Part shown: positions 1 to 33,548 of the stretch, in pieces | Layout: every line of letters starts with the position of its first letter | Position numbering within the stretch: position 1 is the stretch's first letter | Notes under the pieces: generated by a model | The model's database searches: none | Told to the model about the DNA's origin: nothing | The model's input: the letters and a program-made list of their open reading frames with translations, nothing else | Translations under genes and position numbers: made by a program | From: an uncultured Clostridia bacterium | GTDB lineage: Bacteria > Bacillota > Clostridia > Christensenellales > Borkfalkiaceae | NCBI GenBank assembly: GCA_944363255.1 | Contig: CALVTZ010000001.1 | Location: forward strand, 1 to 36,152 | Direction: 5' to 3' | DNA length: 36,152 nucleotides

Positions 1-3000
1 GTTGGCAAGATCCATGATGAGGCGCTCGTCCTCTTTGAGGTCTGCAAGGCGCGTCTCCACTTCCTTCATACGCTCGTACACGTCCTCCGTGTAGACGGTG
101 GGAAGTTCGTAGATGATCGCCTGCAGGTCGCGCACTTCCTTTCTTGCGTTGGCGATGCGCAGCGCCACGATCTGCTTGTAAGAGTCGAGCACGGTGTTGA
201 CCATGTTGTCCCACGCTTCCTGCGTGTAGCCAAAGTCCGTACCGCTCTGCTTGAGCGCGTTGTACGCCGTGACTGCGTTGGAGATGAGCGCCTCGTCTGC
301 CATCGTCACGTTCTCGATGGAGAGCACCTTCTCGGCATAGTCGAGGAAGAGCACGAGGTTGCGCTCGCGCGCCACGTATTCGCTGCGCTCGGCGTCTGCA
401 ACGGCGCCGAAGTACACGAGGTAGACGGTGGAGTCATACCCGTGCAGCTCCTTGTTGGCGGGAAGTACCATCTTGATGGGTTCGTTCTTGCCGAGCAGCG
501 CCTTGAAGTTGTAGTAGGTGAGTTCCAGCCCGAAGAGGTCGAACTGGTTGTGCAGGATCTGGTAGCCGGGATCGGTCTCCTCCAGCCCCTTGACCGCAAG
601 GGCGTTGTTCTCGATGACGCACAGCGGGTAGTAGCGATCGTTGAGCTGGTACATCTCCGCAGCCGACTGCAGCGAAGAGTCGAGCGTGGGTGCGACGGAG
701 GAGCGGAATTCAACGCTCTCCAGATTCTTGTAGCCGTAGAAGGCGAAGCCTGCGATCGTCTTGAGCGAATCGGGGAATACGATGCTCTTGATATTCTCGT
801 TGCCGTTGCCTGCGCCGAAGTCGATGAGTACGGTGCCCTCCTTGACGGTGAGCGTATCCGTCTTCATGCCGCCGGGCACAGCGGAGAGCATGAGCTTGCC
901 GTTTTCCAGCACGGTGTAGAGCACGCCGTTCTCGAGCAGGAGCTTGTCGTTCACCTGCCCGCTCACAGCCTTTTCGCCCGCTGCGTTGAAGTAGGAGAGC
1001 GCCTCCAGCTTGCCGTTGATGTTGAATGCAAGTTCCTCTACGCGCTCGAGCTTGTCACCGAAGGTGAACTGCGTGAGCAAATTGTTGACGAACGCCGCCT
1101 TGCCGATGCTCTTGAGCGCGGGTGCTTCGACCGTGCGCAGCATGGCGTTGGTGAAGGCGTAGTCCCCCACCGTCTCGAGTACGGGGAAGGTAAAGTCGCC
1201 CGAAATACCGCTGCCGTGGAAGGCGTATTCGCCAATGCTCGTCACCTTGGAAAGGTCTGCATAGGCGAGCGAGAGCGTGGAGTAGAAGGCGTAGTCGCCG
1301 ATCTGAGTGACGTTTTCAAGATCGATGTCGTTAAGCGCCTCGCAGCCGAGGAAGGTCTCCAGCCCGATGGACGTGATCGTCGCGGGCAGGGTGACCTTCT
1401 GCAGCGAACCGCACAGCGCGAACACCTGGTTGCCGAAGCTCGTGACGCTGTCGGGAATGGTGACGGCGGTGAGGTTTGCGCAGCCGAGGAAGGCAGCGTC
1501 GCCGATCGTCTCCAACGTATTGGGCAGCGTGATGTGCGTGAACGCAGGGCCGACGCCGTTTTGCAGCGCGCGGGAGAACGCACCCTTGCCGATGGTCACA
1601 ACGTCGGGAACGGTGACGGTGGAGAGCGCAGCGCACTCTGCAAACGCGTAGTCGCCGATCTCGGTCACGCCCGTGAGGTTTGCCTCCGTGAGCGACGTGC
1701 ATCCGAAGAAGGTCTCGTTGCGAATGACGCCGTTCGTCTTGCTCAGATCGATGGTGGCAAGTTTGCTGTCGTATGCGAAGCAGACGGGCCCGAAGGTCAC
1801 GCCGCCCGCTTCGGGCATCGTCACCGTGACAAGGTCAAGGCAGTTTTGGAATGCGCCCAGCCCGAAGGTCGCGTTTGCACCGATGGTGACCTGCGTGAGC
1901 CCGGAGAGGAAGAACGCCCCCTCGCCGTACGTTGCCTCCGCACGAATGGTCGCACTCTTGAGGTTCTTGTTGCGGGCGAAGGCGTAGTCGCCTGCCGAGC
2001 GCACCGCATCCAGCCCCGTGAGGGTGGTGAGCGCGGTGGCCTCCGACTTGTCGGCGTAAGCCTTGAAGTCCTGTCCGTCGAAGGCGTGCGCCCCTACCGT
2101 GACGTTGCCCGTGCCGAAGTTCACTTCGACAAGGTTTTTGCACGCAGCGAAGGCGTAGTCGCCGATCTTGATGTCGCCCCTGAAGGTGAGCTTGGTGATG
2201 TTTGCACCGCTGAATGCGGACGGCGCGATCTCGGTGAAGTTCATGCCGATCGTGTAGTCGCCGTAGTTGTAGGCGGGCGCAGCGAGCGCGATGACCGTGT
2301 TTGCCGATGACGTGAGCGTCAAAAGCGGCGTCTGCGTGCCCGGATTACCGGTTGCGGACTTTGCCGTGTAATAACTGTTGTTGCTGTTTCTCGTATCGAA
2401 GTTGGAGATATTCGTGCCTGCAAGCAGCGAGCCGCTGAGGTTGACGATGCGGGAGTTTTGCTTGAATGCCAGCGTGGTGAGGCTCGTGCAATCGCGGAAG
2501 CAGTTCTCGCCGATGGACATATCGCCGTTGGGCAGCTCGATGTACTCGAGCGCGGTGCAGGCGTAGAACACCTGATTGCCGAAGCTGTTCACGCTTACGT
2601 TGTCGTTATTGCTGCCGAACTCCACCGTGGTGAGCTTGGGGTTCTCGCAGAACGCGCCCTCGCCGATGAGCTTGACGCTGTTGTGGATGGTCACGCTTGC
2701 AAGATCTGCGCACTGTGCAAAGCAGAACGCGGGGATCTCCACTCTCTCGTAAATGTCAACGGAGGTGAGCCCGGACTGTGCGAACATCTCGCGGGAGAGC
2801 TTGCTGTGCTCGTTGAGCTTGACTTCTTTGAGCGCGGTGCAGCCGCGGAAGGCGCGAATGCCCGTGTTGCGCAGCGCGGAGAGGTCGACGTAGGCAAGCG
2901 CCACGCAGTCCTCAAAGCCGCTCTCGCCGATGGCGTAGGTGCGCTTGAGCGCGCCGTCACCCTCCTGGAAGTTGAGGCTGGAGCAGCCCTCGAAGGCGTG

Positions 3001-6000
3001 TGCGCCCACAAGTTCCACCCCGTCGAGGTTGATACTCGTAAGCGACTTGTTGCCGTAGAAGGCGTACTCACGGATGAAGCGCGCCGACTTGGGCAGCACC
3101 ACCCGTTCCAACCCCTCCATGCGGTAGAAGGCATACTTCTGAATGTCCTCTACGCCCTCGGGAATGGTGACCGATTTGATATTTTCGTTGAAGCCGGGCA
3201 CCTTGTTTGCGTCGTAGTCCTCTTCGTCCACGGGAATGGTGTTATCCGTCGTGTACAAGCAGAAGGCGTATGCGCCGATATAGAGGATGCCCTCGTCGTC
3301 GGGAATGACGACGTCGCCGCCCAAGCCCTTGTAGGCTACGAGCATACGATTTTCAATGACGAAGGGATTTTTGACGTTGACGCGCAGCGTCGCACTCAGG
3401 TTGGAACCCTCCACGCGCAGCGTGATGGTCGCCGAGCCCTCGCGCAGCGCAGAGAGCACGCCCTGCTGCGTGACGGAGACGACGTCGGGCGAACCCGAGC
3501 TGTACTCCACCTTCGTGTACCTGTCCGCAACGTACCAGGGCGTCATCTCATAGGAGAGCTGGATGCGCTCGCCGGGGTACATGGAGACCTGGTGTGTGGT
3601 GCTGTTGGTCGTGGAGGAGTACACGGGCAGGGCGGAGATGTACATGGTCGCGCCCGTCGTGCCGATCTCGCTCTGCTGTGCGCCTCTGTCGTGGGCGAAC
3701 AGCGTCTTGAAGTAGGTGAAGCGAATGGATTGCAGTCTGCTGTTCTCGATGTCCTCTACGTCATTCTGCGAGAAGGGCGAAGCGGAGAAGGTGGCAGGCT
3801 CTGCGAGCGTTGCCGTGTCACGCGCTACGACGGTGACGCGGATGGTCGCACTTTTCAGCTCCGTCATGTAGTCCTGAACCTTGACCGTGGTGTTGCCCTT
3901 GCGCACACCGAGCACCTGGCCTTCCTTGACCAGCGCATAGCGCTCGTTTCCGACCGACCAATTCAGGTGCTTGAGGTAGTCCTTATCTGCGTCCACCGTG
4001 CTGTCGCTCGTGTACAGGTACTGCGTGAGGTCGACGATCTCGCCCTCGCGCACGGTGATCGACTTGAGCTCTTCGCTGTCTGCCGTGCCGTCCTGCGTGA
4101 ACTTGAAGTCGCCGCGGGTGCCGGGCAGCTCACACACGAAGATATTCTGGTTGAGTGCGTAGTCCTCCACCGCAAAGCCGATGGCGCTGGGAATGAGCTG
4201 ATCGTACTTGAGGTCGTTGAGGTAGTTCGTGATCTCGATGCGCACCTTGTTGTCCGTACCCTTTTCGCTGTAAACGGGAATGGGATTCTCGGAGAGGAAG
4301 GCATAGGAGGATTCGGACGTGAACGCAATGGGCGTGAGCGCCATGACGTACTGGTTATCGTACAGGGTGAGGTTGATATAGTAGCGATCCTTCTTGAGCG
4401 TGCGGTCGTACTCCTTCTCGTACGTTGCGCTCTTGATGATGGGCGCCTCGTCGTCGAGGACGAAGTTGAAGGAGAAGGTGTTGCGCGCGTTGGTGTCAAG
4501 CCCGGTGCGTTCGTAGTCGAGCTCGCCCACCATCTTGAACTCGTAGGAGCGGTTGTTGATGAGCCCCTGCTGCGCGCTCTTCATATCCAGCTGCTCGAAG
4601 TAAGGAATGGGGCCGCCGCCCTGGGAGTGCGCCTTGCGCGCGTCCCAAGCAATCTTTTCCCACATGACCTGCCCCGTCACGCTGTCCGTGATGGTGAAGG
4701 TCATCTTCTTTGCGTTGCGCAGAAGTCCCGCGTACACGACGGAGATGCCATCGATGTTGCCCAGCGAATTGGAGATCGCCGCGTGTTCCTGCGTGGCAGG
4801 GATGGGATCGTACGCCGAGGTGTCCATATCATACAGATAGGAGCCGAGCGGGATGATATAGTTGTAGAAGTAGGAGCCGTAAGGCGTGGTCGCGTAGTAG
4901 TCCGCCTTGAGCTTGTCCTCTTCGTCGATGGAGCCGTCGTGTGCCTCCGTCTCCACTTCGTAATACGTCTTATCGAAGAGGGGCGCCTGCGTCCAGTCGC
5001 CGTAGTAGGCAAGGAAGGGAATGTTGAGGTCGATCTCGCCCTGCGCCTTCGCCTTGAGCTTGACGAAGCCCTCTACGTACATACCGTAGGGGAAGAGGTC
5101 GTCGATGAGCTTCTTGTCTGCGTCGGTGAGCGTGTAGGTGACGGTGATCTTCGCCGTCATGTTGGGGGAAACGGTGACGACGCCGTTTGCATACGTTGCG
5201 CCCTCCCCTACCTGTACGGCGTGCGTGCCGCCCAGGATCTGCCCCATCTCTGCAATGCGCTCTTCATCTGCGGTGGAGACGGTCTCCGTCATGCCCACAA
5301 CGGACAGGTCGTATTCGAGCGTCTCTGCGGACATATTCACGACGTTGAAGGACATCGTGTACACGCCCTGGCGCTTGGGATCGTCCTTGAGTTCGAGCTT
5401 GGTGCGGTCGATGCCGTCCACCGTGAGGTATGCCTTGGAGTTTACCACCTTTTCGAGGCTGGCAAGCCCTGCGCCCTGCTTACGGGGCGAGTACGGGTTG
5501 CCCTCTTCGTTGAGCACGATGGTCGCCGTGGACATCATGAGCTGGTTCGCCATGACGGAGATCTCTTTCCACGTTGCCTCGGGGAACTTTTCGCGCAGGT
5601 ATTGACGGATGAGCACGACGATGCCGCAGAGGTTGGGCGTCGCCATGGAGGTGCCGCTCATCTCATCGTATGCGGGATTGCCGTCCCCGTCCACACCGTC
5701 GACTGCGGAGCGGATGGTGCCGCCGTGCGCCGTGATCTCGGGCTTGAGCTCAAGCGAGGGCGTGGGGCCCCAGCTGGAGAAGTCGCTCATGAAGGGGCCT
5801 GCCTGATTCTGGTAGGAGACTTCGAGCGTACCCGTTGCCTGCTGCGCAAGAATGGTGCCCACGCTGCGCGAGAGCGAAGCGGTGGGAATGTGGTCGGATT
5901 TGCCCATGGACATGAGGATATCGCCGTCCACGTTGTTGTAGATGAGGCAGCCGATCGCGCCGTTTGCCTGCGCGAGCTGCGACTTCTCTTCGAAGGTGTT

Positions 6001-7566
6001 GTCGCCGCGGCGCACGAGGGCGATCTTGCCCTTTACCGCGCCCTCAGGCAGGGAGAGGTAACTTCCGCGCACGCCCGAACCGGGAATGGTGATATATTCC
6101 ACCACGTGCTTCTCGGAAGAGTTGATATCCCAACCCTGCGACTCGTACAGTTCCTTAAAGAAATCGTTCTCGTCGCCCGTGATGTCGTTGGATTCGTTGA
6201 AGAACACGACCTCTTCGTTGTTGGCAACGAAGTACTTGCTCTTGACGCCGCTGATGGAGGCGACGGAGAGCGAAGCCGTGTAGGTGGAGGGCGAGCCTAC
6301 CGTGCCCAGATCGGGGTTGGTGACGAGGTTGGTGTTGCCCTGATCGCCGCCGAAGCCGGAGTTGTAGGAGTTGCTCGCCGCCGTGATGAGGCTGATCCCG
6401 CTTTGATCGATGCGGTCGTACACTTCGTTGAGGAAGTCGTCGTCCCCTTCGCGGGAGAAGCCGCAGTCGGAGCCGAGGGACATATTGATGGCGTCTACGC
6501 CCAGCGCGACCGCGTCCTCAAGCCCTGCAAGGATGTCGTCCGTATCTGCGCCGTCGCGTGCGTCGGGGAACACCTTGAGCAGCACGAGCTGCGTATCCAC
6601 CGCAACGCCCGTGATCTCGCTGTCCTTGCCGCCGATGATGCCCGCAACGTGCGTGCCGTGCACGTTTCCGTTGGAGGACACGTCGTAGTCCTTATCGGCA
6701 TAGTCGTACTTGAAGGGGATCTTGTCGCTGTAATGCACGTTGTCGTACGTGAGCCCGGGCGTGAAGCCTGCCGCGCGCGAGTCGGGGAGCATCTCCTCCA
6801 CCTTATCCCGCGTGATGAGCAGGTCACTCCCCTCAATGGGCGTTTGGAATACGGAGTGCGAAACGTCGAAGCAGGAGTCGAGAATGGCGACCGCCGTACC
6901 CTTCCCCGTGTAGGAAACGGAGCTCGAATCGAAGATCCCCGTGGGGTATACGTTGACGTCGTTGACGATGGCGGAGGCGTCCGTCGCCTTGCCCTGCACC
7001 TGCACCGCCTGGGGACGGTTGAACGTCTCCGCAAGGTATGCCTGCTGCGCTCTGCCGATGCCGCCCAGCTGCTTGAAGCTACCGTATGTCGTCTTGACTG
7101 CAACGGCGTTGGTGATGAGCGTGTAGTTGTATTCTACGCTGTCGATGAGCCCTGCATAGCGATACTCCTTGATGAGGTCGTTCTGCATGGACTTGAGGCG
7201 GCTTGCCTGCTGGCGCCCCGCGGGAGACTGCGCGTACTCTGCAACGGAGGCGTATTCGCTGTCCAGCCCGTTGCTGAGATAGGTCTCGGAGAGCGATTCC
7301 TCGTCTAGCGTGATGATGGCAACGACTTCGTCGCCGTCCGAATATCCGCCGTTCTTTTTGAGGTATTCCGCCTTGAGACGGGAGAGCATATCGTCCTGAG
7401 AGATCTTCATGTCGCTCTTGACGACTTTGAGCTGCTGAGAGGAGAGCGGTGCGTCCGTTTGAGGGCGATCCACCGTGTTTTCGCCGCGCTGGGGCTGAAC
7501 CGCACAGCCGGCGCAGAAGCATGCCATGACCGCAGCAAGTGCGATCGCAAGAATGGGTTTACGCAT
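1..7566 (-). CDS. Giant surface subtilisin-like (peptidase S8) probable lipoprotein with a PA-domain insert, a beta-rich middle region and a long BspA-type leucine-rich-repeat C-terminal region. Partial: the C-terminus lies beyond position 1 (>2521 aa inside the window).
   Basis: Own translation of the minus frame from ATG 7566-7564 (SD AAAGGAG at 7571-7577) gives MRKPILAIALAAVMACFCAGCAVQ..., a signal peptide with a lipobox-like Cys. S8 triad motifs are AILDSCFD (Asp codon 6877-6879), HGTHVAGIIGG (His 6658-6660) and SGTSMATPNLCG (Ser 5647-5649). A PA-like stretch, GKIALVRRGDNTFEEKSQLAQANGAIGCLIYNN, lies between His and Ser. The ORF is absent from the track because this frame has no stop before position 1. 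Every listed minus ORF between 306 and 7522 is in one of the other two frames. Spot translations at 1-300, 2281-2460 and 4381-4500 are stop-free and protein-like. Confidence 0.9.
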   Translation of the reverse strand, partial: MRKPILAIALAAVMACFCAGCAVQPQRGENTVDRPQTDAPLSSQQLKVVKSDMKISQDDMLSRLKAEYLKKNGGYSDGDEVVAIITLDEESLSETYLSNGLDSEYASVAEYAQSPAGRQQASRLKSMQNDLIKEYRYAGLIDSVEYNYTLITNAVAVKTTYGSFKQLGGIGRAQQAYLAETFNRPQAVQVQGKATDASAIVNDVNVYPTGIFDSSSVSYTGKGTAVAILDSCFDVSHSVFQTPIEGSDLLITRDKVEEMLPDSRAAGFTPGLTYDNVHYSDKIPFKYDYADKDYDVSSNGNVHGTHVAGIIGGKDSEITGVAVDTQLVLLKVFPDARDGADTDDILAGLEDAVALGVDAINMSLGSDCGFSREGDDDFLNEVYDRIDQSGISLITAASNSYNSGFGGDQGNTNLVTNPDLGTVGSPSTYTASLSVASISGVKSKYFVANNEEVVFFNESNDITGDENDFFKELYESQGWDINSSEKHVVEYITIPGSGVRGSYLSLPEGAVKGKIALVRRGDNTFEEKSQLAQANGAIGCLIYNNVDGDILMSMGKSDHIPTASLSRSVGTILAQQATGTLEVSYQNQAGPFMSDFSSWGPTPSLELKPEITAHGGTIRSAVDGVDGDGNPAYDEMSGTSMATPNLCGIVVLIRQYLREKFPEATWKEISVMANQLMMSTATIVLNEEGNPYSPRKQGAGLASLEKVVNSKAYLTVDGIDRTKLELKDDPKRQGVYTMSFNVVNMSAETLEYDLSVVGMTETVSTADEERIAEMGQILGGTHAVQVGEGATYANGVVTVSPNMTAKITVTYTLTDADKKLIDDLFPYGMYVEGFVKLKAKAQGEIDLNIPFLAYYGDWTQAPLFDKTYYEVETEAHDGSIDEEDKLKADYYATTPYGSYFYNYIIPLGSYLYDMDTSAYDPIPATQEHAAISNSLGNIDGISVVYAGLLRNAKKMTFTITDSVTGQVMWEKIAWDARKAHSQGGGPIPYFEQLDMKSAQQGLINNRSYEFKMVGELDYERTGLDTNARNTFSFNFVLDDEAPIIKSATYEKEYDRTLKKDRYYINLTLYDNQYVMALTPIAFTSESSYAFLSENPIPVYSEKGTDNKVRIEITNYLNDLKYDQLIPSAIGFAVEDYALNQNIFVCELPGTRGDFKFTQDGTADSEELKSITVREGEIVDLTQYLYTSDSTVDADKDYLKHLNWSVGNERYALVKEGQVLGVRKGNTTVKVQDYMTELKSATIRVTVVARDTATLAEPATFSASPFSQNDVEDIENSRLQSIRFTYFKTLFAHDRGAQQSEIGTTGATMYISALPVYSSTTNSTTHQVSMYPGERIQLSYEMTPWYVADRYTKVEYSSGSPDVVSVTQQGVLSALREGSATITLRVEGSNLSATLRVNVKNPFVIENRMLVAYKGLGGDVVIPDDEGILYIGAYAFCLYTTDNTIPVDEEDYDANKVPGFNENIKSVTIPEGVEDIQKYAFYRMEGLERVVLPKSARFIREYAFYGNKSLTSINLDGVELVGAHAFEGCSSLNFQEGDGALKRTYAIGESGFEDCVALAYVDLSALRNTGIRAFRGCTALKEVKLNEHSKLSREMFAQSGLTSVDIYERVEIPAFCFAQCADLASVTIHNSVKLIGEGAFCENPKLTTVEFGSNNDNVSVNSFGNQVFYACTALEYIELPNGDMSIGENCFRDCTSLTTLAFKQNSRIVNLSGSLLAGTNISNFDTRNSNNSYYTAKSATGNPGTQTPLLTLTSSANTVIALAAPAYNYGDYTIGMNFTEIAPSAFSGANITKLTFRGDIKIGDYAFAACKNLVEVNFGTGNVTVGAHAFDGQDFKAYADKSEATALTTLTGLDAVRSAGDYAFARNKNLKSATIRAEATYGEGAFFLSGLTQVTIGANATFGLGAFQNCLDLVTVTMPEAGGVTFGPVCFAYDSKLATIDLSKTNGVIRNETFFGCTSLTEANLTGVTEIGDYAFAECAALSTVTVPDVVTIGKGAFSRALQNGVGPAFTHITLPNTLETIGDAAFLGCANLTAVTIPDSVTSFGNQVFALCGSLQKVTLPATITSIGLETFLGCEALNDIDLENVTQIGDYAFYSTLSLAYADLSKVTSIGEYAFHGSGISGDFTFPVLETVGDYAFTNAMLRTVEAPALKSIGKAAFVNNLLTQFTFGDKLERVEELAFNINGKLEALSYFNAAGEKAVSGQVNDKLLLENGVLYTVLENGKLMLSAVPGGMKTDTLTVKEGTVLIDFGAGNGNENIKSIVFPDSLKTIAGFAFYGYKNLESVEFRSSVAPTLDSSLQSAAEMYQLNDRYYPLCVIENNALAVKGLEETDPGYQILHNQFDLFGLELTYYNFKALLGKNEPIKMVLPANKELHGYDSTVYLVYFGAVADAERSEYVARERNLVLFLDYAEKVLSIENVTMADEALISNAVTAYNALKQSGTDFGYTQEAWDNMVNTVLDSYKQIVALRIANARKEVRDLQAIIYELPTVYTEDVYERMKEVETRLADLKEDERLIMDLAN
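715..3175 (-). repeat. Coding array of BspA-type leucine-rich repeats (LRR_5-like, about 23-25 aa units) within the giant protease gene, split by a non-repeat spacer around 2290-2400
   Basis: Own translation shows reiterated AFxxCxxLxx(V/I)x(L/I)Pxx(V/L)xxIGxxAF units. Examples are PAFTHITLPNTLETIGDAAFLGC (about 1480-1550), VTIPDSVTSFGNQVFALCGSL and KSIVFPDSLKTIAGFAFYGYKNLESVEF (about 720-800). The nucleotide periodicity also shows in the repetitive antisense ORF 442..2310. Confidence 0.8.
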
Positions 7567-25681: not shown

Positions 25682-25954
25682 TTATGCCTGCGTCTTTGCG
25701 TCCAGCCAGAGGGCGAGGATCTCTTCGGGCTGAAAGCCCGTGCAGCGCGCCACTTCCTCCCCGTCGCGGCAGACGATGAGGGTGGGAACGCGGTCGATGT
25801 GCAGCGCCGCCACCCGCTCCCCCGTCTCCTCGTTCACTTCGAGGTGTTCCACGTCCAGCCCGCGCTCCGCCGCAAGTTTTTTGACGAGCGGGAGCAGCGT
25901 ATAGCAGTTTGCGCACGACTCCCCGCTCACTTCAAGCAGTGTATAGTTTGCCAT
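25682..25954 (-). CDS. Thioredoxin-fold protein (CxxC = CANC), 90 aa
   Basis: MANYTLLEVSGESCANCYTLLPLV...RVPTLIV (cis-Pro motif). SD GGAGGG. The ATG shares one base with the pflA stop (TAATG at 25952-25956). Only the C-terminal 90 codons of track ORF 25682..26323 look real. Confidence 0.8.
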   Translation of the reverse strand: MANYTLLEVSGESCANCYTLLPLVKKLAAERGLDVEHLEVNEETGERVAALHIDRVPTLIVCRDGEEVARCTGFQPEEILALWLDAKTQA

Positions 25955-26682
25955 TACTCCCTCCCGTACTTGCCCGCGCGCAAAATGCGCTTGGCGTTTT
26001 CCACGCGCTCGCGTTCGGGCGGCTTCACCCCTTCGAGCGGATAGCTGCGCCCCAGCGCTCGGTACTTCTGCTCGCCCATGGTGTGATAGGGCAGCACCTC
26101 CACCTTCTCCACGTTGGAGAGGGTGTCGAGGAACGCCCGAAGGCGCAGCAGCGCCCCGTCGTCGTCCGTCAGCCCGGGCACGAGCACGTGCCGCACCCAC
26201 ATGGGCTTGCCCCGCTCGCTCAAAAAGCGGGCGAAGGCGAGGGGCGCCGCGTTCTCCCGCCCCGTGAGCTGCCTGTGCGCGTCCGCGTCGATGTGCTTGA
26301 TGTCGAGCAGGACGAGGTCGCACACCGCAAGCAGCTGCTCGTAGCGCGCGTCCCCCTGCTCAAAGCAGATGCCCGAGGTGTCCAGACAGGTGTGCACGCC
26401 CTTTTTTTTGAGCAGCGTGAACAGCTCGATGAGAAAATCAAGTTGGAGCAGCGGTTCGCCCCCCGTTGCGGTGACGCCGCCCCCGCCCGTGAAGTAGCTC
26501 TTATAGCGCATTGCCTCGAACGCGACTTCCTCGGCGGAGAGCATCTTGCCGCCCACCACCCAGGTATCGGGATTGTGGCAGTACTTGCAGCGCATGGGGC
26601 AGCCCTGAAAAAAGACGACGAACCGAATGCCCGGCCCGTCTACCGTGCCGAAGGATTCATAAGAATGGATATTCCCCGTCAT
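25954..26682 (-). CDS. pflA: Pyruvate formate-lyase activating enzyme (radical SAM)
   Basis: GTVDGPGIRFVVFFQGCPMRCKYCHNPDTW contains the CxxxCxxC motif. Start moved to ATG 26682 (MTGNIHSYES, SD GGAGGG 4 nt upstream). Confidence 0.9.
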   Translation of the reverse strand: MTGNIHSYESFGTVDGPGIRFVVFFQGCPMRCKYCHNPDTWVVGGKMLSAEEVAFEAMRYKSYFTGGGGVTATGGEPLLQLDFLIELFTLLKKKGVHTCLDTSGICFEQGDARYEQLLAVCDLVLLDIKHIDADAHRQLTGRENAAPLAFARFLSERGKPMWVRHVLVPGLTDDDGALLRLRAFLDTLSNVEKVEVLPYHTMGEQKYRALGRSYPLEGVKPPERERVENAKRILRAGKYGRE

Positions 26683-26715
26683 ACGCCCTCCCCTCTCTGC
26701 CCGCCCCGCGCGTGC

Positions 26716-26757
26716 GGGGAACAAAGGGCAGTTTCTACCTTACGATAAAAACTGCCC
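26716..26757 (-). terminator. Terminator-like hairpin inside the pfl leader (possible attenuator)
   Basis: In the minus-strand RNA, GGGCAGUUU (26757-26749) pairs with AAACUGCCC (26734-26726) around a 14-nt loop, followed by UUUGUU. It lies about 35 nt upstream of the pflA ATG. A second hairpin, CCCCGC-ACGC-GCGGGG (26719-26704), abuts the SD. Confidence 0.45.
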
Positions 26758-26842
26758 AGACGAACGGCTGTAACTTGGGATACGGTTCCATTGCGGTGCT
26801 CCGCAGCTTCGTCAGTTGCCGCATCCCCTTTCACTTGCCCCT

Positions 26843-31623: not shown

Positions 31624-31652
31624 TTGCAAGGGGCGCGCGCATCTGTTATAAT
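31624..31652 (+). promoter_or_regulatory. Promoter of the HEPN-like/CBS gene
   Basis: TTGCAA (31624-31629), 17 nt, TATAAT (31647-31652). SD GGAGGAGAG follows, before ATG 31670. Confidence 0.7.
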
Positions 31653-31669
31653 GGCGTTGGAGGAGAGAG

Positions 31670-32416
31670 ATGAACAAGAACAACGCGACGCGATTTTTGA
31701 AAAGTTACAACCGCATCGAGGCGCAGCTCAAGCTGCTGTACAACTGCAATACGCGCGCCAACATGAGCTTTACCGACCTCGTGAAGCGGTGCAGCGACCT
31801 CGACATCACGGTGCGCCGCTACGCCGCCGAACTCATCGACTACGGCAAACTGCGCAACGCCATCGTGCACCGCGAGGTGGACGGAGATCGGGAGACGGTG
31901 ATCGCCGTGCCCTGCGACGAGGTCGTCTCCACCATCGAATTTATCGAGGCGATGCTCTGCCGCCCGCCCCGCCTCATCGACGCCATCAAGGTGAAGAAGG
32001 TCGCCTCCGTGTTTGCCGATCACCCCGTGCTCGACGCGGTGTCCGCCTTCCGCGAAAATTGGCAAAAGACGCTCATCGTGTACGACCACGGCAAAATGAT
32101 CGGCGTCATCAATTCCTACGGGCTGTATGCAGAGATCGAGGCGCGCGTGAAGGGCGGGGCGGACCTTGCGCACTTCTTCAAGGAGACGCTGTGCCGCGAC
32201 ATCGTGCACCCCGCCGAGATGGAGAAGTACCGCGTGATGGCAAAGGACGCCACCGTGTTCGAAGTGTTCGTCGCCTTTGAAGAGCAAAAGCACCTGCTCG
32301 CCGTCATTGTCACCGAGACGGGCACCTTCGGGGAGAAGGCGCTCAGCATCATCACCCCCTCCGACTTCCCCCGCATCAACCGCTTCCTCGAAAACTACAA
32401 CGTAAAGCCGTTTTGA
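31670..32416 (+). CDS. Two-domain protein: an N-terminal alpha-helical domain with a HEPN-like Rx4H motif (Swt1-like HEPN candidate) fused to a C-terminal CBS pair
   Basis: The N-domain reads FLKSYNRIEAQLKLLY...ELIDYGKLRNAIVHRE. Arg62 is at 31853-31855 and His67 at 31868-31870, with Asn following Arg as in many HEPN RNases. The C-terminal half is CBS-like (IKVKKVASVFADHPVLDAVSAFRENWQKTLIVYDHGKMIGVINSYGL ... MAKDATVFEVFVAFEEQKHLLAVIVTETGTFGEKALSIITPSDF). Strong promoter and SD. Confidence 0.8.
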   Translation: MNKNNATRFLKSYNRIEAQLKLLYNCNTRANMSFTDLVKRCSDLDITVRRYAAELIDYGKLRNAIVHREVDGDRETVIAVPCDEVVSTIEFIEAMLCRPPRLIDAIKVKKVASVFADHPVLDAVSAFRENWQKTLIVYDHGKMIGVINSYGLYAEIEARVKGGADLAHFFKETLCRDIVHPAEMEKYRVMAKDATVFEVFVAFEEQKHLLAVIVTETGTFGEKALSIITPSDFPRINRFLENYNVKPF

Positions 32417-32488
32417 GGTCGTTTTTCGGGGTTTGGGCAGAAAAAGAAAAAAAGTTGCAAAAAATTAAAATTTTTTTCAGAAAAAGTA

Positions 32489-32516
32489 TTGACAAATGAA
32501 AATTCTGTGCTATACT
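32489..32516 (+). promoter_or_regulatory. Near-consensus promoter with an extended -10 and an upstream A/T-tract (UP-like) region, driving the orphan RNA
   Basis: TTGACA (32489-32494), a 16-nt spacer, then TGc-TATACT (32508-32516). It is preceded by aaaaagaaaaaaagttgcaaaaaattaaaatttttttcagaaaaag (32441-32486). Confidence 0.75.
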
Positions 32517-32521
32517 GTAAG

Positions 32522-33159
32522 CACAACAAGGGAGCAAGCCCTAAGGAAGCCCCCCAAACGGAGTTCAAACGGAACGGATCCGGGACAACTTCCCACATCA
32601 AAACCGCAGCGGCTCACACGACCATATCTTCTGCAGGACGGGAAACCGTATATGGCACGGTAAGACAAAACGGTGGCGACGAAGAACGTTGAAAGGGAAA
32701 AGGACTGTGGAAGACGAAGGGCGGGAGACGAAGAGCGTTCCACCTGCAGACAAACGTTTGTCGTACGCAAACGACCGGGAAAGCAAGTGCCGAGAAAGCG
32801 AGCTTCTGTACGTTGCGTAGATTTGCATCGTCCACTCATCAGACGGATTTTTGTTCTAAGCTGCGCGGCGCAAACCGTTGTCCCCTATCGCGATGTAACG
32901 AGGTAGATAAGGATAGTCGGAGAGAATGCGCGCAATTCCCCTAATCAGGAACAGAGGCGTAGGAAGAGGGAGGCAGGCGCAAAAGGAAAAGAAACCCTTC
33001 TTTTCAAAGATTTGGAGTTTAACCAACAAGAACGAAAGTGATTTCGGTTAAAAGCGTAAGTGGATCTTAGAAAAGGACTTTTCGGAATCAACGATCTGTA
33101 TCCGATGAAAATGCTACGAAATAACGGCGGCGCACCGAAAGGTGCGCCGCTTATTTGTT
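32522..33159 (+). ncRNA. Candidate large (about 630 nt) structured noncoding RNA of unrecognised class
   Basis: Bounded by the promoter above and a strong intrinsic terminator. No ORF has an SD or protein-like composition. The sequence is purine-rich with many GNRA-capped hairpins, including ACGG-GAAA-CCGT (32638-32649) and TTAACC...GAAA-GTGA-TTTC-GGTTAA (33019-33051). There is long-range complementarity between TCTGCAGG (32630-32637) and CCTGCAGA (32743-32750). The 5' end is estimated at +/-4 nt. Confidence 0.55.
33127..33159 (+). terminator. Rho-independent terminator (first 3' end of the orphan RNA)
   Basis: A 10-bp stem, gcggcgcacc (33127-33136) with ggtgcgccgc (33141-33150), GAAA tetraloop, followed by TTATTTGTT. 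Confidence 0.85.
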
Positions 33160-33164
33160 CACAA

Positions 33165-33337: not shown

Positions 33338-33386
33338 GCGCGGGCGCAAAAGCGTGGTTTTGCTTGCGCAGTTATTTAGAGCGAAA
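33338..33386. repeat. Copy 1 of a roughly 50-nt intergenic repeat containing a conserved hairpin
   Basis: gcgcgggcgcaaaagcgtggttttgcttgcgcagttatttagagcgaaa, with hairpin GCAAAA-gcgtgg-TTTTGC at 33346-33363. Confidence 0.7.
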
Positions 33387-33498: not shown

Positions 33499-33548
33499 GC
33501 GCGGGCGGAAAAGTGTGATTTTCCTTGCGCTAGTAATTTAGAGCGAAA
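33499..33548. repeat. Copy 2 of the roughly 50-nt intergenic repeat
   Basis: gcgcgggcggaaaagtgtgattttccttgcgctagtaatttagagcgaaa, with hairpin GGAAAA-gtgtga-TTTTCC at 33507-33524. It differs from copy 1 by a compensatory C:G to G:C swap in the stem. Confidence 0.7.

Follow-up and report, generated by a model that had tools for sequence, protein, structure and literature searches.

A predicted ligand-gated HEPN ribonuclease family with a fused CBS pair, and a large structured RNA beside its gene in gut Clostridia

What does a small gene encode that forms, together with a structured RNA, the only plus-strand unit on a stretch of clostridial DNA, and do the gene and the RNA belong together? The stretch is 36,152 nucleotides (nt) of a genome assembly from an uncultured Clostridia bacterium of the Borkfalkiaceae (GCA_944363255.1, contig CALVTZ010000001.1, positions 1 to 36,152), which we call the window, and the gene lies at 31670–32416 on its plus strand. 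An initial annotation, made from the letters of the sequence, had described the product as a HEPN-like domain with an Arg-x4-His (Rx4H) motif fused to a pair of CBS domains, a candidate ligand-gated ribonuclease (RNase). Judging from its sequence, its predicted structure and analogy with characterized systems, we consider it probable that the gene product is a stand-alone, ligand-gated HEPN endoribonuclease, with RNase activity as the predicted output.

Domain composition of the protein

The open reading frame (ORF) was found exactly as described, with an ATG start, a product of 248 amino acids (aa) and the motif K-L-R62-N-A-I-V-H67, in which R62 is encoded by nt 31853–31855 and H67 by nt 31868–31870. 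Sequence searches returned 156 full-length homologues (best non-self match, E=7e-128), and a deeper profile search of the full database returned 2,092 clusters at 50% identity (E<=1e-3), so the gene is real and not a chance reading frame. The start codon is preceded by a ribosome-binding site, GGAGG, 6 nt upstream (31659–31663), and by a predicted promoter-like site, TTGCAA-17-TGnTATAAT, at 31624–31652 on the plus strand (10 of 12 matches in a consensus scan, with an extended −10 TG), in agreement with the earlier claim that the gene has its own promoter. A genome scan with peptide patterns specific to the window protein's clade recovered 92 species, all of them metagenome-assembled genomes from gut, mostly of chicken; they belong to Candidatus Gallimonas (placed in Clostridia incertae sedis by the NCBI taxonomy), Borkfalkia, Protoclostridium and unnamed Clostridia.

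We built a full-length AlphaFold 2 model from 30 homologues, with a mean predicted local distance difference test score (pLDDT) of 87. In this model the protein falls into two parts. Residues 1–100 (31670–31969) are essentially all-helical, as had been proposed, with helices at 3–23, 34–42, 46–50, 52–65 and 83–97 and two strands of three residues each at 66–68 and 75–77. Residues ~105–245 (31982–32404) adopt the beta/alpha fold of a CBS pair.

The C-terminal CBS pair, or Bateman module, is established. The Pfam CBS model matched the window protein at 26 bits against a cut-off of 24, identified two CBS repeats in the family consensus (E 2.3e-22) and matched 109 of 109 family members. A Foldseek search with the full model was dominated by this half of the protein and returned only CBS-pair structures: the top ~50 matches had E values of 1e-6 to 1e-5 over 134–158 columns, and 282 matches had E<=0.001. 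They included TTHA0829, AcuB with AMP/ADP/ATP/Ap4A, AMPK-gamma, an S-adenosylmethionine-bound CBS regulatory domain and CbpB with cyclic di-AMP (c-di-AMP), and the module is predicted to be a ligand sensor. The NCBIfam models of the Listeria c-di-AMP binders, CBS_CbpA and CBS_CbpB, matched weakly and over the CBS part only; no literature link was found, and identity with CbpA or CbpB was rejected. A CBS motif is closed by a ribose/phosphate-binding signature of the form h-h-[TS]-x-x-[DN]. The corresponding stretch of the second CBS motif, I-I-T229-P-S-D232, is retained in the window protein, T229 and D232 being conserved in 93% and 94% of the family, and the end of the first motif is degenerate (G-V-I-N-S-Y).

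The N-terminal domain required a closer reading. In a survey of HEPN domains, Anantharaman et al. 2013 (PMC3710099) defined them by features that include an Rx4-6H motif with a polar residue (N, D or H) right after the arginine, an upstream acidic E-x3-[KR] motif and helices 2 and 3 that are separated by a short insertion. The N-domain agrees well with this description. The window protein carries R62-N63-A-I-V-H67 (31853–31870), the predicted catalytic motif, which the model places at the end of helix 52–65 (helix 3), running into the loop before helix 83–97. It also carries E17-A-Q-L-K21 (31718–31732), with E17 invariant in the clade and a family consensus of I-E-x-x-L-R (D in some members), and a short insert is seen between helices 2 and 3 of the model. 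Across the 30 close homologues (52–83% identity), the whole stretch D57-Y-G-K-L-R-N-A-I-V-H67 is invariant. In a set of 109 sequences with 23–43% identity to the query, the sole invariant columns of the entire protein are L61, R62, N63, H67, A79 and P81, and L61, R62, N63 and H67 are likewise invariant in a set of 129 sequences. The catalytic-type motif is therefore the most conserved feature of the family, its arginine and histidine being kept in homologues down to 23% identity.

Profile searches repeatedly pointed to HEPN families. The window protein itself gave a weak Pfam match to RiboL-PSP-HEPN (E 0.006, below the cut-off), and individual family members matched RiboL-PSP-HEPN, HepT-like and EcoEI_R_C, again weakly. 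For the N-domain of the family consensus, the top five Pfam matches were HepT-like (E 3e-4; 20.9 bits against a cut-off of 23.5), DUF6548 (6e-4), RiboL-PSP-HEPN (1.5e-3), Cthe_2314-HEPN (3e-3) and Apea-HEPN (3.7e-3). The consensus also matched the C-terminal part of the PADLOC model CARF_HEPN (positions 323–388 of 410, E 3.2e-4) and the NCBIfam model HepT_toxin (E 4.4e-3; 16.9 bits against a 60-bit cut-off). In sequence searches of the PDB, neither the protein nor profiles of its N-domain yielded a significant match to the N-domain; the top one, at E 0.62, was the HepT toxin 6m6w, in which LRNIAVH is the counterpart of LRNAivH. A profile search with the N-domain alone, aimed at finding it in other Pfam-labelled architectures, returned for the most part truncated pieces of this same family, and none of the profile or structure searches recovered a non-HEPN family or a competing fold. 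From the motif, the predicted topology, the upstream E-x3-K and the convergence of sub-threshold matches, we conclude that the N-domain probably represents a HEPN subfamily that is divergent and has yet to be classified. The HEPN-like character proposed in the initial annotation is supported, but the specific affiliation with Swt1-like or abortive-infection HEPN domains that it had suggested was not confirmed.

The same evidence bears on the alternative of a non-catalytic regulator, in which the helical domain would bind DNA, RNA or a partner protein under CBS control (as in CcpN), with the R/H motif needed for binding instead of catalysis. Several sources label family members as transcriptional regulators; CBS pairs fused to helical DNA-binding domains do exist, and the CBS domains of CcpN are among our Foldseek matches. 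The HEPN profile matches are sub-threshold, and HEPN domains that bind but do not catalyse are on record (PMC3710099). However, no scan recovered a helix-turn-helix or any other DNA-binding family, and the feature that is most conserved family-wide is precisely the catalytic signature R-N-x3-H, whose loss marks the inactive HEPN domains (PMC3710099). We regard a purely regulatory function as improbable.

Spread of the family and comparison with known systems

If the protein is an RNase controlled by its own CBS pair, how widespread is this arrangement, and has it been seen before? At a threshold of E<=1e-10 the deep search retained 1,119 clusters, and nearly all members are full-length, at 230–250 aa. 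Databases list them just as "CBS domain-containing protein" or as "predicted transcriptional regulator", the latter being a label of the Joint Genome Institute (JGI). Named members were found in Bacillaceae, Paenibacillus, Erysipelothrix, cyanobacteria, Thermoanaerobaculia, Kosmotogaceae, Dethiobacteria and Halanaerobiales, and a small number are carried by plasmids of Chlorohelix and Rhodococcus. A search for carriage by phages was uninformative, with two tblastn matches in unannotated 'UNVERIFIED_ORG' records and no match in PHROGs.

Neighbourhoods outside the clade were examined for four distant members in long contigs (our loci L082–L085). The neighbours were a MTES_1575-type helicase, a McrB-like AAA_5 protein and an HSDR_N protein in L082, transposases and a STAND-like ATPase in L083, a PIN/VapC pair in L084 and a zeta-like kinase in L085. 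They differed each time and had a defence or mobile flavour. No conserved protein partner of the HEPN-CBS gene was found across the examined loci, which fits a self-contained sensor-effector.

This absence also bears on whether the protein is the toxin of a conventional HEPN toxin–antitoxin pair (HepT/MNT, type VII) whose antitoxin gene has been overlooked. The best Pfam and NCBIfam matches of the N-domain are to HepT models and its best PDB sequence match is a HepT toxin (Shewanella SO_3166, PDB 6m6w), a small HEPN protein of similar size whose Rx4H motif aligns with ours. Yet both profile scores given above lie under their cut-offs, there is no MNT gene or other conserved coding neighbour (the flanking genes in the window encode a GH42 beta-galactosidase and, beyond the RNA, an asparaginase), and the flanks vary among relatives. 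Unlike HepT, moreover, the protein has a CBS pair fused at its C-terminus, and a fused sensor argues for control inside the same molecule. We consider a HepT/MNT toxin highly improbable.

The initial annotation knew of no characterized HEPN-CBS fusion, a statement that is now outdated: such fusions were predicted in 2013, and one with the domains in the opposite order has since been validated. Anantharaman et al. described active HEPN domains belonging to the Abi2/Swt1 clade fused to CBS domains, with or without an HD domain (alr3009; gi 118580987 from Pelobacter propionicus), and proposed that these proteins sense nucleotide derivatives and so regulate RNA stability (PMC3710099). The concept, a CBS nucleotide sensor regulating an active HEPN RNase, is the same as the one we propose. 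The 2013 fusions, which we set beside the present family by description only, are listed under Swt1-like HEPN, some of them with the extra HD domain; the best, though weak, matches of the present N-domain are to HepT-like and RiboL-PSP-HEPN and not to HEPN_Swt1.

The validated example is DS-11, a one-protein anti-phage system of E. coli that combines CBS and HEPN domains and was reported in the DefensePredictor study (bioRxiv 2025; Science 2026, PMC13092281). The substitutions R330A and H335A and the CBS substitution Y157A each abolish phage defence, and in an AlphaFold 3 model the dimer binds ATP, a candidate ligand (PMC13092281). For comparison we took the DS-11 sequence from the supplement of that study (WP_000257686.1, 365 aa), which corresponds to the NCBIfam equivalog NF053863 DS11_antiphage, 'CBS domain-containing anti-phage protein'. 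Like the window protein, DS-11 unites a CBS pair and an Rx4H HEPN domain in one polypeptide with no partner gene. The CBS pairs of DS-11 and of the family are related (hhalign probability 96.7%, E 4.6e-10), and DS11_antiphage is the top NCBIfam match of the family consensus, at 42.1 bits against a cut-off of 260 and over the CBS region only. The window protein itself, however, has no match to the DS-11 model, and the order of the domains is reversed: DS-11 has an N-terminal extension, CBS domains at 134–241 and HEPN at 287–362, whereas the window protein has HEPN at 1–100 and the CBS pair at 105–245. The HEPN domain of DS-11, assigned as SAV2148-like, has no detectable kinship with that of the family beyond the motif (E 0.18). 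DS-11 also comes from accessory DNA of E. coli, whereas the Gallimonas/Borkfalkia gene is paired with an RNA and looks vertically inherited in its Clostridia lineage, amid ordinary metabolic genes. On these comparisons, the HEPN-then-CBS family brought these two kinds of module together independently, a DS-11-like design outside the DS-11 family. We found no literature on the HEPN-then-CBS order. What is new relative to DS-11, the one validated example, is the domain order and the HEPN subtype; a ligand-gated HEPN RNase with a CBS sensor is itself already known as a kind.

In Csm6/Csx1 (CARF-HEPN proteins that respond to cyclic oligoadenylates) and in RNase L (which responds to 2-5A), an adenine-based messenger activates a dimeric HEPN RNase allosterically. 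The KEN domain carried by RNase L is treated as a HEPN domain in the 2013 survey (PMC3710099). The proposed working principle of the present family is the same, and its best PADLOC match is to the C-terminal part of CARF_HEPN, but its sensor is a CBS pair in place of a CARF or ankyrin-kinase module, and it has no CRISPR or cyclase context. As a separate observation, Table S10 of the DefensePredictor study (PMC13092281) lists WP_001532511.1, a 263-aa 'CBS domain-containing protein' of E. coli, as predicted defensive with log-odds of ~5; its length would suit a member of the HEPN-then-CBS family.

Several observations weigh against a ligand-gated HEPN RNase. All of the HEPN profile matches fall below their curated cut-offs, and a Foldseek search with the N-domain alone (model pLDDT 77) gave nothing significant and no match at E<1; at E>1 only, the sacsin HEPN domain 3o10 ranked second (TMq 0.46) and a HEPN toxin, 7ae6/7ae2, was also present (TMq 0.38). 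The sensor has changed as well. The family's CBS1 motif, ySQiPVy, has become W-Q-K-T-L-I-V-Y (aa 127–138) in the window protein and in most of its clade. Y157 of DS-11, which contacts adenine and is needed for defence, aligns with 'y' in the family consensus but with Q132 in the window protein, and a proline conserved in 96% of the family has also been lost. With this aromatic residue and the proline missing, the ligand site of the RNA-carrying clade may be altered, or its sensing lost. Lastly, with genes for GH42, GH31 and asparaginase, the neighbourhood in the window is not a defence island.

The downstream RNA and the gene neighbourhood

The second question raised by the locus is that of the RNA. 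As the initial annotation had noted, it follows the gene immediately: a structured RNA of ~640 nt occupies 32523–33160 on the plus strand. It has its own near-consensus promoter, TTGACA-16-TG-n-TATACT, at 32489–32516 (+) (11 of 12 matches in the consensus scan), and a strong intrinsic terminator at 33126–33151 (+), with an 11-bp GC-rich stem that covaries across loci, followed by a T-run. Its composition is strongly biased towards purines (plus-strand AT skew, +0.21). The RNA matched no Rfam family at the gathering threshold or at E<=1, including OLE, ROOL and GOLLD, and contained no tRNA or tmRNA.

In 70 of 80 species loci, iterative nhmmer searches placed a same-strand homologue of 580–780 nt directly downstream of the gene. 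A promoter of the form TTGACA-N16-TGnTATAAT was present within 300 nt 3' of the gene in 68 of the 80, and at least one locus that gave no nhmmer match (L075) has a promoter, ~660 nt and a terminator in the matching layout. RNAalifold predicted 22 pairs from 32 full-length copies, 10 of them with compensatory double changes. Among the covarying elements is a long-range helix in which 32630–32637 (TCTGCAGG) pairs with 32743–32750 (CCTGCAGA). For the 3' domain we could use 27 copies, including divergent ones, and 14 of 22 pairs covaried. The RNA looks like a new large non-coding RNA class of Gallimonas/Borkfalkia-type Clostridia. OLE RNA, with its protein partners OapA/B/C, is a large bacterial non-coding RNA of ~600 nt from anaerobic Firmicutes that is encoded beside those partners. 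It is a comparator for the RNA only, as a structured RNA of about that size beside a candidate protein partner.

Within the RNA of the window there is also an imperfect 29-nt direct repeat (76%) at 32662–32690 and 32711–32739 (AAGACnAAnnGnGGnGACGAAGAnCGTT), within an A/G-rich stretch of low conservation; the 32-sequence alignment showed nothing comparable in the matching region.

Do the protein and this RNA work together? In such a pairing the RNA might serve as a dedicated substrate that the protein matures or turns over, as a partner in a ribonucleoprotein, or as an abundant inhibitor of a toxic RNase in the manner of type III toxin–antitoxin systems. In favour is the adjacency itself, in 70 of the 80 loci, together with a near-perfect promoter kept in most of them. 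In a pattern search of metagenomes, 41 matches were true RNA homologues, and the gene lay upstream in 25 of these and the upstream sequence was absent in 10 others. The genes around the pair are far less constant: the window's flanking genes were near the HEPN-CBS gene in none of the 80 loci, and flank clusters are common only within subclades, the largest covering 34 of the 80. Because the flanks vary while the adjacency persists, the gene–RNA arrangement has survived rearrangement of the surrounding genes. The RNA is clearly structured, and gene and RNA form the sole plus-strand element of the window. Finally, no terminator turned up when the interval from the gene's stop codon to the promoter of the RNA was scanned (32417–32488), so that transcription of the gene may continue into the RNA.

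Other observations argue the opposite. The RNA has its own promoter and terminator, and some relatives do have a terminator between gene and RNA, for example L075 at 4805–4835. Contigs with the RNA only were checked for the HEPN-CBS gene by ORF inspection, and in at least three of them an MsbA/MdlB-like ABC-transporter gene precedes the RNA instead: in L090 (gene 634–2406, RNA 2631–3215), L133 (gene 2028–3827, RNA match 4226–4577) and L140 (gene 12–542, RNA match 1687–2017). The RNAs behind these transporter genes share the 3'-domain fold. In four family members outside the clade there is no such RNA downstream of the gene, nor room for one. The layout also departs from that of type III (ToxIN-like) systems, in which an antitoxin RNA with tandem repeats lies upstream of a toxin of the ToxN/AbiQ fold and is co-transcribed with it; here the RNA is downstream, has its own promoter and accompanies a HEPN candidate, and it has no conserved tandem repeats, the 29-nt repeat being specific to the window. 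Nor do convincing direct or inverted repeats flank the gene and RNA as boundaries of a cassette. Adjacency inside one bacterial family could, moreover, be plain inherited synteny. We therefore regard the adjacency as striking but not obligatory and a functional link between gene and RNA as possible though far from favoured; that the two work as a pair in any of the three ways named above strikes us as rather unlikely.

The rest of the window supports the earlier statement that gene and RNA are its only plus-strand unit. On one side the gene is flanked by the GH42 beta-galactosidase gene and on the other by the RNA and then the asparaginase gene, both genes being on the minus strand, as are further genes for GH31, radical-SAM, HlyIII, ferredoxin-type and Opp ABC proteins; apart from the HEPN-CBS unit, every Pfam-supported gene of the window is on that strand. 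Two long plus-strand ORFs, 442–2310 and 2458–7308 (1,616 aa), are shadow frames of a giant minus-strand gene at 1–7308 that exceeds 2,400 codons, is of normal composition and runs off the left edge; the 500 codons checked contained no stop, and the fragments tested had no Pfam or PDB match. A radical-SAM/Fer4_12 gene (25954–26724, minus strand) has a ZMP/ZTP riboswitch directly upstream of it, at 26747–26829 on the same strand (58 bits against a cut-off of 39). In the 430-nt non-coding spacer from the RNA terminator to the asparaginase gene, a direct repeat of ~49 nt occurs at 33338–33386 and 33499–33548; the copies are 88–94% identical and 161–162 nt apart, with a small hairpin in each.

Proposed function and its significance

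Taking the protein as a ligand-gated HEPN RNase, we propose the following mechanism. The N-terminal ~100 aa would form a minimal four-helix HEPN domain in which R62-N63-x3-H67, aided by E17-x3-K21, makes up a metal-independent RNase centre, and the C-terminal CBS pair would be the sensor. The protein would act as a homodimer, by analogy with HEPN RNases and Bateman modules in general and in keeping with DS-11 and the 2013 prediction. When an adenine-containing nucleotide binds in the CBS cleft or leaves it, the two HEPN domains would change their orientation, and the paired Rx4H motifs would thereby come together as a composite active site or be pulled apart. Cleavage of RNA, whether cellular or from an invader, would in this way be switched on by a metabolic or infection signal.

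The biological role may differ between lineages. Outside the clade, where neighbourhoods are variable and of defence or mobile type, an abortive-infection-type defence role like that of DS-11 is most likely, by analogy. For the Gallimonas/Borkfalkia clade, a role centred on the RNA is conceivable in view of a gene context of housekeeping type, the changed CBS1 site and the RNA next door, and the RNase may act on the adjoining RNA or be controlled by it. A bolder version is that the protein and the ~640-nt RNA constitute a new protein–RNA module, in which a nucleotide-sensing RNase would be restrained by, assembled on or engaged in processing the RNA, itself highly expressed, and which would have moved between contexts as a unit. 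We think this rather unlikely; if true, HEPN enzymes would gain an RNA antitoxin or a ribonucleoprotein partnership of a kind not so far described for them.

If the protein is the RNase we propose, the family would be a second, independently assembled case of the logic of DS-11, in which a CBS nucleotide sensor controls a HEPN RNase, and one that counts over 2,000 clusters, spread through Bacillota, cyanobacteria, Acidobacteriota and Thermotogota, and has been masked by the name "CBS domain-containing protein". Were it defined, annotation pipelines would gain a new HEPN subfamily, a compact 240-aa system would be at hand for finding the adenine-derived signal, and the influence of domain order on the allosteric control of HEPN dimers would come to light. 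In the gut Clostridia of the Gallimonas/Borkfalkia clade, the clade-specific pairing with the RNA would offer an experimental handle on an orphan RNA, and possibly the first HEPN enzyme coupled to a dedicated RNA.

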